The notes below the pieces were generated by a model. The model was not told the DNA's origin. It made no database searches and was given only the letters and a program-made list of their open reading frames with translations. A stretch of 64,000 nt of DNA from a virus: positions 63,321 to 127,320 of the IMG/VR virus record IMGVR_UViG_3300012964_000010. One strand, 5' to 3'. This document shows, one piece after another, positions 6,035-58,174 of the stretch. Made by a program: the position numbers and the translations under genes. Positions within the stretch are counted from its first letter, which is position 1; the number at the start of each line of letters is the position of its first letter.

Positions 6035-8185
6035 TTAGATTTTCTCCTGATTATCAACCATTTTGATATAATCTACTACTTCTAATTCAGGTGCCGAATT
6101 TAAATATTTTAGAAGTGGGTACTTCTGATAAAGATCGTTCTTTGCATTCTCGATTTTCTTCTTAACCTTGTCGACATGCAGAGAATTACCATATTTAGTA
6201 CACAAATCAACAAGTTGAGATGCATCACCGGATAAACGCTTAATATTCCCGTATTCTTTCATAAATTTAGCATAGGCCGAATCAGGACCAACTAAACGTG
6301 CAACTGTCTGGTTGGAATATATCTTAGTGTAATAACCATCAAGCATTTCCTTGGCAACCATAGATGCAATGTGAAAATCGGTAATCTTTGTAGTCTCTTC
6401 TTTAAGTTTAGTTTCAATCCAAAACCAATTCGGCAAATCTTTGATATCATCAATACGATTCTTTCGAACACCCATAATTCGGATATCCGAGATATCAGAA
6501 ACACCACACTTATCCATCAATGCCTTGAGTGGGTAAATGTCAAAATGTGCACCTTCGTGGGTAATTGGTTGAAAATTATTTAAACAAACGTAATAATAAG
6601 TATCATTATCATCAAGATCATGTTCATATGGTACCCAGGTATAAGAATCTTCAAATCCCGGCTTGCAATCAGACCTCAATGCAATCTGCATGATACCTTG
6701 ACTAGACAGTTTCTCGCGCCTTACAATTGGCTTCTTTTGCAATTCACTGGCCTTTAATACCCTTGGTGGGTTGTGCAATTCCTTAAGGAAGGCTTCGTAC
6801 TCTACCTGGCGTTTCGCGACATCGGGATCAGTATGTGATATACAAAAGACAGATACAGAATCGTTGCCGTAATTTGTGTAATGGTATCGAGTTCGCGAAA
6901 CGCAACCCGTTTTAAGATCATTCAATATGATAACAACATTCTTTTCCACTGGAATAGATGTTCCTTCGACATAGGTCTTGAGGGTATGAATATAAGTGCT
7001 ATATCTACCAGCCTTGCCACGATAGCAACCATGGCTAAAAGTCATACCATCGATGCTCAATCCGCGAGATTTCATTTCTGCGTCAGTAAAATTAAAAATC
7101 TTCTTCCCATAATGAACAGTAGGATCGTATAATTCAAACTTAGAATCGGCAACATATTTCGGCACCGCTGATGCATACAACCGAGTGCGTGCCTCAGTAT
7201 ATAGATATTCCGCACGTTCCCATTTGTCCACAATAGCATCCGCTCTTTTTGCAAGATGGCTTGCAAGATTAGCATTAATTGCTTCAAGTTTTTTCTTAAT
7301 ATTATTAACGGTCAACGGAACAATGCTGAGTTCTTCACGAGAAGCTGCAAAATCAAGCTCGCCGATGTTGAATTCAATAATTAATCCACATTCCAGCAAT
7401 GATGCCAACTTACCAAAATGCTTTTCTGGTTCAGAGATCTTATCGAGCGAATAAGCAATATTTCCCATTACTGCGGTAGATTTTGAAGGATACTCGTATC
7501 TATCAGTACTGCCTGTTACGTGTACCCCAGGAACAATATCTTTTTCTTTATAGGTCGGAGTTTTGTGCTGAAAGTTAACACCAGTAATTGTTGGTTTATT
7601 TTTGAACCACATGAAAACATTTTCAGCTTCATGATGGAAACTGTTGTAATCAAAACGATCAGTAACACTGAATTTAACTTCAACACCATTACCTTCGTCA
7701 GTAAGTTCGGTGCTCATCTCAGCAATGCTGGGTACACCCATCTCGCTAATAAATGCACTATAAATCCGTTTGGTACCGTCTTTAATAGCAATGACAGTGA
7801 AATTCTCAGTATAGCTAAATGGAGATTTAGAACCAAGGCCAAGAGCACCAATAAAATCATTGGAATCAGTCTTGGTAGATTCGAAATACGTTGTGTAGAT
7901 ATTGGTAACTTGATCACCAGTCAAACCGGTACCGAAATCTTTTACTGCAAACCAAGGTTCGAGCATGCAGGGGAGATGCACCTCAAACGGAATATCTGCC
8001 TTGCCAGCTGCAACATGACTATCTACTGCATTACATGATAATTCGCGAATGATGGCACGAATCTTGTTGGAATAGAGGCCATCAGACAAGATCTTAAAAG
8101 CCTTGGCTGAATTACGAATACGGAATTCACCAGTAGTGATAACGTTGGATAAAGTAATCTCATTAACTTCTACATCTAACTTCAT
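6035..8185 (-). CDS. rIIA: rIIA protein (GHKL ATPase N-terminal domain)
   Basis: AFKILSDGLYSNKIRAIIRELSCNAVDSH, DFGTG and GALGLGSKSPFSY motifs. Confidence 0.92.
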   Translation of the reverse strand: MKLDVEVNEITLSNVITTGEFRIRNSAKAFKILSDGLYSNKIRAIIRELSCNAVDSHVAAGKADIPFEVHLPCMLEPWFAVKDFGTGLTGDQVTNIYTTYFESTKTDSNDFIGALGLGSKSPFSYTENFTVIAIKDGTKRIYSAFISEMGVPSIAEMSTELTDEGNGVEVKFSVTDRFDYNSFHHEAENVFMWFKNKPTITGVNFQHKTPTYKEKDIVPGVHVTGSTDRYEYPSKSTAVMGNIAYSLDKISEPEKHFGKLASLLECGLIIEFNIGELDFAASREELSIVPLTVNNIKKKLEAINANLASHLAKRADAIVDKWERAEYLYTEARTRLYASAVPKYVADSKFELYDPTVHYGKKIFNFTDAEMKSRGLSIDGMTFSHGCYRGKAGRYSTYIHTLKTYVEGTSIPVEKNVVIILNDLKTGCVSRTRYHYTNYGNDSVSVFCISHTDPDVAKRQVEYEAFLKELHNPPRVLKASELQKKPIVRREKLSSQGIMQIALRSDCKPGFEDSYTWVPYEHDLDDNDTYYYVCLNNFQPITHEGAHFDIYPLKALMDKCGVSDISDIRIMGVRKNRIDDIKDLPNWFWIETKLKEETTKITDFHIASMVAKEMLDGYYTKIYSNQTVARLVGPDSAYAKFMKEYGNIKRLSGDASQLVDLCTKYGNSLHVDKVKKKIENAKNDLYQKYPLLKYLNSAPELEVVDYIKMVDNQEKI

Positions 8186-56099: not shown

Positions 56100-56161
56100 A
56101 CAGAGTACGCATTTGGTTTCATTAAAAGTGAAAATTTTTGTGATTGCAGTAGGTACTCTTT
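56100..56161 (-). ncRNA. Y-RNA-like element (copy 11) with Lys(TTT) anticodon hairpin
   Basis: AGAGTAC/GTACTCT stem, TACTGCAA motif, TTTCA-CTTTTAA-TGAAA. Confidence 0.75.
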
Positions 56162-56823: not shown

Positions 56824-56898
56824 TGGTGGAAGCCGAGGGAGTTGAACCCTTCTAGTCAGCAATCTTGCAAGGATTACCCGTAGCCCGCTACTGCCCCC
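56824..56898 (-). tRNA. tRNA-Ala(TGC), atypical D arm
   Basis: TAATC-CTTGCAA-GATTG, G3.U70. Confidence 0.72.
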
Positions 56899-57108: not shown

Positions 57109-57196
57109 TGGTGGGTACTATAGGATTCGAACCTATTCATCCTTAAGGAAACAGGGTTACAGCCTGCCACGCGCTCTCCAACTCGGTCGCGTACCC
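57109..57196 (-). tRNA. tRNA-Tyr(GTA)
   Basis: Loop CTGTAAC, long variable arm. Confidence 0.88.
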
Positions 57197-57433
57197 AAAA
57201 TCAACACACTCTTTCGAATGTGTGTAATAAAGGGTACAGCACCACGGACATTTCACTCCCATTTGGTTTCACTGTGCCCTTTATTACCCGGAATTTTACA
57301 CATCTGCGTTATCGCCACAGACTTATCATCCTCCGGTCCGCCCTCATTTGCAGCATGTTTTAAGTGCGCTGCCAGGCTCGCGTTGCCTGTAATATCTTCA
57401 CACTAACTAACCATCACGCTTCACAGCGATCAA

Positions 57434-57463
57434 TAAAAAAGCCGCTTAGTTTCCTAGCGGCTT
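57434..57463 (-). terminator. attenuator terminator at the head of the tRNA array
   Basis: AAGCCGCTAG-GAAA-CTAAGCGGCTT followed by TTTTATT; 5' arm is also complementary to 57507-57521. Confidence 0.85.
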
Positions 57464-57490
57464 CCTTTTATAAAACTTCTGGTTACTTTG

Positions 57491-57661
57491 TTAGTTTCCA
57501 GACTCCTTATAGAAGGAAGCCATGTGCATCGGATCTTGTTCAATACTATTAGGGTTTGTACCGAATGCACCTGTCTCGAGCCAATACCCATTGCAGACCG
57601 CAGATTTGCGAACTACTGTCGCAGCAAATGCTTTCTGATGTGATAAGGTCAAGCCAATCAT
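57491..57661 (-). CDS. putative attenuation leader peptide (56 aa, all 20 amino acids)
   Basis: MIGLTLSHQKAFAATVVRKSAVCNGYWLETGAFGTNPNSIEQDPMHMASFYKESGN*; GGAAAACAAA before the ATG; last codons overlap the antiterminator. Confidence 0.7.
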   Translation of the reverse strand: MIGLTLSHQKAFAATVVRKSAVCNGYWLETGAFGTNPNSIEQDPMHMASFYKESGN

Positions 57662-57716
57662 TTTGTTTTCCGTTTAAAATCCAAGTTTAATGTACAGGAA
57701 CTCACTTGTACAAAGT

Positions 57717-57724
57717 TATTTATC
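57717..57724 (-). promoter_or_regulatory. T4-like late promoter motif GATAAATA (recurs through the window)
   Basis: Same motif upstream of genes near 1142, 3459, 11936, 18692, 23737, 37487, 45348, 61081 (minus) and 8264 (plus). Confidence 0.6.
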
Positions 57725-57906
57725 ATCTGTCTCAAAAATGCTGTAGATAATTGGTAGCCTGTACACAATGTGGCTACAACCTTCAATATAAGCATCTTCT
57801 TAATCTATGCAGTAACTTTAACACATGTTATAGCGATCTGTCAAGTTATTCAAGTTATCTTCTTAGAGACAGATATATTGTACTGCATTTTTATTTATCA
57901 CTTTGT

Positions 57907-58174
57907 ATTATAGCACCACTAAAAATAGTGTCAAATACACCAAAAATTAGTAAAACACAGAGCGAGCTATTATCGACCCGATCGCTTGCTCTCTCATCTA
58001 TCGGGCGTCGGGCCTCTCCGATAAATCTCTGTATTTATAATAAACTGCATTGTAACACTAATTTAGGCAAGTGTCAACCAACTCACTTAGGTTGAATTTA
58101 CCTGGTCTATTTGGACTTCACTATAAATTTGCGTTACAGATGCTATTGTATATGCATATTATATATGTGTCAAC
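57907..58174 (-). promoter_or_regulatory. three tandem sigma70-type promoters upstream of the leader and tRNA array
   Basis: TTGACA-N17-TACAAT near 58146-58174 and 58049-58077; TTGACA-N16-TATAAT with TG extension at 57907-57934. Confidence 0.65.

Follow-up and report, generated by a model that had tools for sequence, protein, structure and literature searches.

A candidate ribosome-mediated attenuator with an all-amino-acid leader peptide at the head of a phage tRNA array

The tRNA array of a phage genome is headed by an element that we read, with a probability of approximately 0.6, as a ribosome-mediated transcription attenuator, in which a shortage of any aminoacyl-tRNA would cause read-through into the array. 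This reading is drawn from comparative sequence analysis, from which we infer termination, read-through, ribosome dependence and the natural signal. An attenuator had been proposed in a preliminary description of this DNA, and the parts of the proposal that can be tested on sequence (the frame, the RNA constraint at its 3' end, covariation, position and amino-acid completeness) held on unseen data.

Leader element and its genomic position

The window, i.e., the whole stretch of 64,000 nucleotides that was analysed, makes up the later half of an IMG/VR virus record of 127 kb whose completeness is estimated at approximately one third. Its 50 tRNA genes and one tmRNA are without exception located on the minus strand. 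Among cultured phages, a 716-aa rIIA-like ORF is closest to PA5oct-like jumbo phages (41% identity, covering 55% of the ORF length). The leader element is present in one copy only in the 127-kb record. Its features, in the order of transcription, are as follows:

57815..58173, minus strand: cluster of four sigma-70-like promoter matches (promoter scan; alignment of 19 upstream regions)
57890..57903, minus strand: upstream copy of an (A)GATGATAAATAA-like motif, here AAGTGATAAATAAA, just 3' of the 12/12 promoter (sequence, alignment)
57717..57727, minus strand: second copy of the motif, exact GATGATAAATA, near-invariant in 19 homologs
57691..57712, minus strand: hairpin P0 in the 5' UTR, at the same position in homologs, with differing stem sequences and often a GAAA loop
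57669..57671, minus strand: weak Shine-Dalgarno-like GGA, 7 nt 5' of the ATG (sequence, alignment)
57491..57661, minus strand: leader ORF, 56 sense codons and TAA, with all 20 amino acids by codon 43 (sequence, homologs)
57459..57521, minus strand: hairpin P1, putative antiterminator, 63 nt (fold, -27.0 kcal/mol alone)
57459..57463, minus strand: shared segment AAGCC, which can enter the P1 base or the lower stem of the terminator (fold, alignment)
57435..57463, minus strand: predicted intrinsic terminator, a stem-loop at 57463-57439, then T6 at 57440-57435 (-13.7 kcal/mol alone)
57411..57431, minus strand: hairpin P3 straight after the T tract, then conserved TAGTGTGAAG; kept in most homologs with quite different sequences, as judged by eye
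57112..57196, minus strand: first tRNA-like gene past the terminator; it resembles tRNA-Tyr(GUA), has a long variable arm and scores 26.8 bits in Rfam, which is under the gathering score (not predicted by ARAGORN)

The four sigma-70-like sites (58173-58145, 58077-58049, 57934-57907, which is 12/12 with TG, and 57844-57815) lie on the strand of the ORF, all within 360 nt upstream, in agreement with the tandem promoters noticed at the outset; in the alignment of 19 upstream regions, TTGACA-type promoters occupy matching positions in many homologs. The 260 nt 5' of the ORF contain conserved promoters, two copies of the AGATGATAAATAA motif, a hairpin and the weak GGA ribosome site, and (T)TGGA is found by eye at a similar spacing in many of the 19 aligned homologs. 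A role of GATGATAAATA as a general late promoter is unsupported, since the window contains five matches with at most one mismatch versus 3.9 expected.

On the other side of the element, the Tyr-GUA-like gene starts 238 nt 3' of the T tract, and the first tRNA of the window that was predicted by ARAGORN is located at 56898. The array had been described as starting right after the terminator; same-strand tRNAs do follow, however not immediately, given the distance of 238 nt. The RNA that connects the terminator to the first tRNA matches no Rfam family, and P3 is a part of the read-through transcript. The first unit after the gate consists of the Tyr-like gene, Ala, Ala, Asp, Thr, Pro, Ile, an endonuclease-like ORF, Glu and Lys. 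Because promoter-like sites are found inside the array (the nearest strong one at 54426-54398 of the window), the whole array of 48 kb need not depend on the leader gate, which can be claimed for the first unit only.

Homologous loci were collected in several ways. A protein search yielded two homologs and a peptide-pattern scan four viral loci; a DNA pattern of both P1 arms yielded 8 viral and 20 metagenome stretches, and a terminator-only pattern (loop and 3' arm) 10 further viral loci. After de-duplication, there were 28 distinct leader DNAs and 30 distinct peptides from viral and metagenome contigs, including contigs of 363-385 kb. It should be noted that the loci were found through RNA motifs and not through peptide composition. 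Among GenBank phages there was no DNA or protein match to the leader, the single blastn match being a tRNA-like stretch. The only match in a prokaryote genome, a MAG scaffold (L070), was rejected as a host clue: it is an unrelated gene-end terminator with the same 21-mer, with no leader and no tRNAs. At the loci of other array-bearing phages, reached through the neighbouring 371-aa protein (L002-L027), a search for leader homologs gave none.

Same-strand tRNAs are located downstream of the leader in 28 of the 28 loci, at 209-2522 nt past the U tract, and a tRNA upstream was found in none of them (median 3.3 kb examined); thus, the element marks the 5' edge of the array. The first tRNA predicted by ARAGORN is tRNA-Tyr(GUA) in 18 of the 28 loci. 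Within 1.3 kb past the terminator, neither a match to TTGAYA-N16-18-TANNNT nor the GATAAATA motif is present in 15 of 19 loci.

Selection on the reading frame and RNA structure

A frame of 49-60 codons that starts with ATG and ends in the P1 loop was found in all 28 loci. Over 19 ORFs there are no internal stops in this frame versus 49 and 123 in the other two frames, and the ORFs have ten different lengths (153-183 nt), every one a multiple of three. In close pairs pN is lower than pS (e.g., 0.09 versus 0.43 and 0.04 versus 0.25), and the invariant Pro codon uses all four third bases. By this evolutionary pattern, the leader ORF behaves as a translated frame. The values of pN/pS in close pairs (0.2-0.4) and the strongly kept motifs RLCAGYW and EQDP indicate a constraint on the peptide that exceeds what the presence of one of each amino acid would require.

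The end of the frame is subject to a constraint of another type. The frequency pS in the last ten codons, which form the 5' arm of P1, is 0.049 versus 0.53 upstream, so that the synonymous freeze is confined to the overlap with P1. The changes F>C, F>L and Y>C in the ASFYK motif, as well as the synonymous change TAT>TAC, each have a matching change in the non-coding 3' arm, and these compensations were seen in loci found without the P1 pattern. In the window, GGCTTCCTTCTATAA (57521-57507) and TTATAAAAGGAAGCC (57473-57459) pair at 14 of 15 positions; as RNA, GGCUUCCUUCUAUAA (57521-57507) and UUAUAAAAGGAAGCC (57473-57459) constitute the base of P1. Both sequence and fold confirm the pairing, which had been claimed for the 3' end of the ORF and the downstream arm. 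The 5' arm of P1 corresponds to codons 47-56, and the stop codon (57493-57491) is placed in the apical loop.

Both helices have signatures of compensatory evolution. In P1, 10 of 24 pairs changed on both sides, compared to 2.1 +/- 1.1 in shuffles (0 of 500 reach this number) and 0-3 in slid controls, while invariance of the P1 arms is by construction in the 19 loci found with the P1 pattern. In the terminator, 4 of 10 pairs are compensatory, 96.8% of cells in the alignment of 28 sequences are paired and T6 is invariant, with the qualification that invariance of the 3' half is by construction in nine loci found with the terminator pattern. Independently, RNAalifold returned the full P1 together with a truncated terminator (upper part only). 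The second arm of P1 had been said to overlap the 5' side of the U-tailed terminator, and the two indeed have 5 nt in common (AAGCC, 57463-57459). Changes in this segment fit both helices: in one locus (L053) a C>U change is compensated twice, by the 5' arm of P1 and by the 3' arm of the terminator, and in another (L065) an A>G change leaves a wobble pair in each helix. All 28 loci have the same terminator loop, GGAAAC, among them 19 that were found without using the loop, and GGAAACTAA is also present at the end of the ORF.

Folded alone, P1 has -21 to -29 kcal/mol and the terminator -11 to -16 kcal/mol in the homologous loci. In the window, the two states are nearly isoenergetic (1.5 kcal/mol apart); with the shared 5 nt forced either way, 26 of 28 loci favour the P1 state, the mean advantage being only 1.4 kcal/mol. 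In whole-leader folds, the shared segment favours P1 in 17 of 28 loci, and the window is split 0.51 to 0.48. The two structures had been described as mutually exclusive, which holds for the five shared nucleotides; however, the other 19 pairs of P1 are compatible with the terminator. Given this 5-nt overlap and a difference of approximately 1.4 kcal/mol, strict mutual exclusivity of the two helices was rejected. Since the helices are near balance and compete only at their junction, thermodynamics predict a modest switch, and a kinetic advantage of P1 during transcription must be assumed.

No RNA polymerase pause hairpin or anti-antiterminator (a helix of the 1:2 type) was seen in the whole-leader folds of the seven leaders inspected, and the 5' arm of P1 had no recurrent partner in the whole-leader folds of seven loci. 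Searches against Rfam 15 gave only chance-level matches, i.e., RcsR1 with 22 bits for the window leader (E<=1) and mir-3914 with 28 bits for the leader of one of five homologous loci, L028 (E<=0.1); no covariance-model match on the leader corresponds to a T-box or another described RNA family.

The spacing is regular over the 28 loci: 28-31 nt from the start of P1 to the stop codon, 21-31 nt from the stop codon to the shared segment and 23-25 nt from the shared segment to the U tract. With 21-31 nt between the stop codon and the shared segment, a ribosome at the stop codon would cover the 5' arm of P1 and not the terminator. Repression by the ribosome has been described for terminators very near a stop codon (PMC4824070), and the terminator of the leader lies outside the range given there.

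Amino-acid completeness and the proposed mechanism

The composition of the leader ORF was exactly as initially described: its 56 codons include 40 different sense codons, the set of 20 amino acids is complete at codon 43, and no codon is repeated before number 19, so that the first 18 are all different. Compared to 56-codon windows of the long ORFs of the record (31.5 distinct codons on average, standard deviation 2.8), this diversity is extreme, and only 0.56% of 3215 windows from these ORFs have 20 amino acids within 43 codons. The single-sequence case is weakened, however, by the small ORFs and by G+C content. The 127-kb record contains 24 ORFs of 40-80 codons with a complete set of amino acids, and 6 of 444 small ORFs reach 20 within 43 codons, so that a single sequence of this kind is not beyond chance; the G+C fraction of the leader ORF is 0.45 versus 0.39 in genes, and this difference alone increases diversity. 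Given that 64 kb were scanned, the leader ORF alone is not significant, and it is the family-level test that gives the significance.

All 20 amino acids are present in 30 of the 30 distinct peptides (49-60 aa), and in all 21 peptides checked they are present before the ASFYK motif, i.e., before P1. The positions are not fixed: His occupies six or more alignment columns, Cys has changed place in one locus (L040) and is swapped with Arg in another (L057), and the two main clades differ in the position of Ile (SIEQ in one, DPI in the other). We simulated evolution along the tree, using maximum-likelihood site rates and replacements drawn from the family composition, with the root forced to be complete; the mean number of complete leaves was 5.9 of 30, with a maximum of 22 in 3000 runs. 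In an earlier simulation, 3.1 of 21 leaves were complete on average, and at most 15 in any of 5000 runs. These tests were relied on rather than a column shuffle, which overstates significance because alignment shifts put homologous residues in different columns.

A profile search over 1.84 billion cluster representatives detected 69 proteins at E<=0.001; 67 of these are short. Representatives (<=50% identity) were trimmed to the family start, where 64 have Met. Of these 64, 55 are complete, one amino acid is missing from each of eight and two are missing from one, compared to 3.6 +/- 1.8 complete peptides (maximum 12 in 5000 draws) expected for random peptides of the same lengths with the pooled family composition; it should be noted that the search HMM was built from complete peptides and may favour complete matches. 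His, Arg, Ile, Asp and Trp are absent from no representative, with 10-23 expected to be without each. Taken as a pattern of sequence evolution, amino-acid completeness is a selected trait of the family, maintained through turnover of positions.

The rule does not extend to codons. Given this peptide, 40 distinct codons compare to 35.4 +/- 2.2 expected (P = 0.027), AGR codons for Arg are present in only 1 of 19 leaders (thus, both Arg codon boxes in 1 of 19), and 7 of 37 phage anticodons read no leader codon. For these reasons, the sampling of every tRNA species at the codon level was rejected as a family rule. Stalling at almost any codon, as originally suggested, would fit the presence of every amino acid; however, the claim is weak at the codon level (P = 0.027; AGR in 1 of 19). 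The leader has no codon runs, and most rare amino acids appear approximately once per peptide. Since classical attenuators have runs whereas here there is one codon per amino acid, the design should be insensitive to a mild shortage.

The proposed mechanism is as follows. Transcripts from the upstream promoters would carry first the leader ORF of 50-60 codons, whose last ten codons are the 5' arm of P1; the base of P1 would take 5 nt needed for the lower stem of the terminator. A ribosome that keeps pace with RNA polymerase to the end of the leader would hold the P1 5' arm open, so that the full terminator can form and end transcription ahead of the tRNAs. With a ribosome that is held up within the first 40 or so codons, or that never starts, P1 would form first and withhold the lower terminator stem, and the polymerase would proceed into the tRNA genes. 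Because no amino acid is missing from the codons before P1, the ribosome could be delayed by a severe lack of aminoacyl-tRNA of any class, which could arise from starvation, from a host without the tRNA or from cleavage by an anticodon nuclease. Such a feedback loop would raise the tRNA output of the phage when translation is short of tRNA and lower it when the supply is sufficient. In 11 of 21 peptides, the only codons for Pro and/or Ile are among the last four before P1, and a ribosome stalled at such a late codon may itself open the base of P1 rather than spare P1. Points that count against an attenuator are the 5-nt overlap, the weak GGA Shine-Dalgarno and the nine incomplete representatives. 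The broadest form of the proposal, in which the leader is a "test track" for the genetic code, the transit time of the ribosome over one copy of each amino acid setting the tRNA output, and the element is a pan-aminoacyl-tRNA homeostat and an automatic countermeasure to host anticodon nucleases and to hosts whose tRNA pool does not match, is put forward tentatively, as we hold its chances to be slightly below even.

The same RNA switch could report the general status of translation (ribosome availability, initiation, coupling, or the time of infection and host shut-off) instead of tRNA supply, in which case the all-20 composition would have another cause or would merely average transit time over all tRNAs. 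Without translation P1 wins, so any loss of coupling would lead to read-through; a single codon per amino acid is poorly suited to sensing a mild shortage of one amino acid, in contrast to the regulatory codons described in PMC1183508; and the supply of the leader from sigma-70-like promoters with a conserved extra motif suggests use at several stages of infection. However, any composition would serve a pure coupling sensor, and this explanation does not account for completeness being kept through the turnover of positions (30 of 30 peptides, 55 of 64 representatives). We consider it rather unlikely.

More improbable still is an ordinary gene for a small phage protein, with P1 and the terminator merely ending and stabilising the mRNA and the array having its own promoters. 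Such a gene would fit the purifying selection, which is stronger than a composition rule needs, the RLCAGYW and EQDP motifs, which are kept as amino acids with synonymous variation, and the size of the family (69 clusters at E<=0.001). Against it, residue changes in ASFYK are tolerated once the RNA pairing is restored, changes in the shared segment suit both helices, the stop codon is always in the P1 loop at a fixed distance, and the element is always at the 5' edge of the array, with 15 of 19 loci having no promoter-like site in the next 1.3 kb. The peptide has no Pfam family (0 families), and AlphaFold2 with 66 sequences gave no confident fold (pLDDT 57.8, pTM 0.15); completeness in peptides of 50 aa would be left unexplained.

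Least probable, and to our mind improbable indeed, is a terminated leader RNA and/or peptide that acts in trans (as an sRNA or a small peptide), besides or instead of control in cis: the GGAAAC loop, invariant in 28 loci, and the recurrence of GGAAACTAA at the ORF end do exceed the needs of a hairpin, and PMC6614838 and PMC7298713 describe trans roles for the attenuator products rnTrpL and peTrpL of Sinorhizobium, but neither amino-acid completeness nor the position at the array edge would be explained.

Significance and relation to known systems

To our knowledge, the control of expression of the large tRNA arrays of giant phages is essentially unknown. If the attenuator reading is correct, it would provide a leader selected for all 20 amino acids, a leader-peptide attenuator over tRNA genes and a regulatory logic for the arrays of giant phages. 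An inducible supply would explain how approximately 50 tRNA genes can be carried without constant cost, and phage tRNAs have been viewed as protection from immune systems that cleave tRNA (PMC11555353 and PMC11464382). The element is self-contained, comprises approximately 230 nt and could become a compact reporter of global aminoacyl-tRNA sufficiency; with promoter-like sites that match the sigma-70 consensus, it should lend itself to direct tests in E. coli or with reconstituted translation.

Attenuation has been in the textbooks for fifty years, and trpL, hisL, pheL, leuL and thrL are enterobacterial ribosome-mediated attenuators of amino-acid biosynthetic operons. Attenuators, among them those returned by the literature search, are known to sense one or a few amino acids and to control the enzymes making them. 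A full-text literature search returned no description of an all-20 leader attenuator before tRNA genes; the class of mechanism is known, and the combination of an all-20 leader with a tRNA array as the target is new, as far as that search shows. The principle of ribosome-mediated attenuation is set out in PMC1183508 and PMC3082878. As in the trpL class, the element combines a short leader frame with an antiterminator that overlaps a U-tailed terminator, the position of the ribosome would be decisive and a completed leader would result in termination. There are four differences from that class. The codons do not cluster on one amino acid, all 20 being represented, for the most part by one to a few codons each; the seven leaders inspected gave no 1:2 helix, which predicts read-through and not termination when the leader is left untranslated; the targets are phage genes for tRNAs and other RNAs, not biosynthetic enzymes; and the overlap of the helices is only 5 nt.

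A second group consists of drug-responsive leader-peptide attenuators of resistance genes, among them ermK, vmlR and bmrCD. The mef/mel-msrD leaders, presented in PMC4335068 and 10.1101/2021.11.29.470318, are of the same type. The likeness is in two helices with no anti-antiterminator, where normal translation leads to termination and a stalled ribosome to read-through. Those attenuators respond to a drug together with a specific nascent peptide, whereas no arrest motif is evident in the phage leader, and its proposed signal is a lack of any aminoacyl-tRNA.

T-box riboswitches, according to PMC2879506, likewise sense the status of tRNA, choose between a terminator and an antiterminator and are located before translation-related genes; unlike the phage leader, a T-box has no ORF and directly binds one specific uncharged tRNA. 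The reporter of translation speed built on the his leader (PMC4046918) is an engineered laboratory tool rather than a natural pan-amino-acid sensor, and there an attenuator reports how fast ribosomes read single codons, which is what the phage leader would need.

RNA between the terminator and the first tRNA

57411-57431 (minus strand), hairpin immediately 3' of the terminator's U tract, corresponding to columns ~133-160 of A5, the alignment of homologous leader loci

This hairpin is retained in most of the loci in A5 despite widely differing sequences, and takes two forms, one with a GUGA loop and the other CCAAAC/GUUUGG. On its 3' side follows a conserved UAGUGUGAAG, beyond which ~200 nt more of conserved RNA lie ahead of the first tRNA. 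No Rfam family was found that matches the RNA between the U tract and the first tRNA. Taken together, the hairpin, UAGUGUGAAG and the conserved ~200 nt suggest that the read-through transcript holds an undescribed structured RNA.

Terminator loop and leader repeats

57447-57455 (minus strand), copy of GGAAACTAA in the terminator loop
57491-57499 (minus strand), second copy, at the ORF end and including the stop codon

The GGAAAC of the terminator loop shows no variation in 28/28 loci. This conservation exceeds what a terminator loop requires, which makes GGAAAC a candidate protein-binding or loop-contact site. L070 (2421-2441), a MAG scaffold labelled Pedobacter, carries 21 nt identical to the terminator loop plus 3' arm. 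We rejected this match as a relative of the leader locus and consider it chance or convergent, because it belongs to an ordinary gene-end terminator and neither a leader nor tRNAs accompany it.

In the leader of the relative L043 (283-462), a 12-nt unit is perfectly triplicated, which yields CAGYCAGYCAGYW, and identical copies of this leader are found in L049, L052, L054, L055 and L058. The triplication shows that in-frame repeats are tolerated by the leader's variable part.

Additional elements of the tRNA array

57112-57196 (minus strand), tRNA-like gene of Tyr(GUA) type that has a long variable arm
57204-57223 (minus strand), hairpin ACACATTCGAAAGAGTGTGT with T-rich sequence on its 3' side, terminator-like by pattern scan
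56101-56158 (minus strand), ~55-nt inter-tRNA element with a weak match to Dictyostelium Class I RNA

The Tyr-like gene scores 26.8 bits with the Rfam tRNA model, under the gathering score of 29, and was not called by ARAGORN. A near copy in L031 (4479-4563) reaches 29.9 bits and is followed by a regular tRNA-Tyr. The hairpin ACACATTCGAAAGAGTGTGT lies directly 5' of the Tyr-like gene.

The ~55-nt elements also occur between tRNAs of relatives (L028, 4952-5005; L029, 4113-4167 and 4355-4408; L039, 8277-8332; L043, 2093-2149). They score 30-34 bits against the Dictyostelium Class I RNA model, below its gathering score of 41.5, and are probably a phage-specific family of small hairpin RNAs rather than Dictyostelium Class I RNA.

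Possible host and upstream motif

6035-8185 (minus strand), rIIA-like ORF, 716 aa
57717-57727 and 57890-57903 (minus strand), two copies of AGATGATAAATAA in the 5' region

The closest cultured relatives of the rIIA-like ORF are found in PA5oct-like Pseudomonas jumbo phages (41% identity, 55% of the protein covered), a hint that this group of phages may infect a Gram-negative host. The motif AGATGATAAATAA is almost invariant among 19 homologs, with no enrichment in the rest of the window, and resembles TATAAATA, the late promoter of T4 type.
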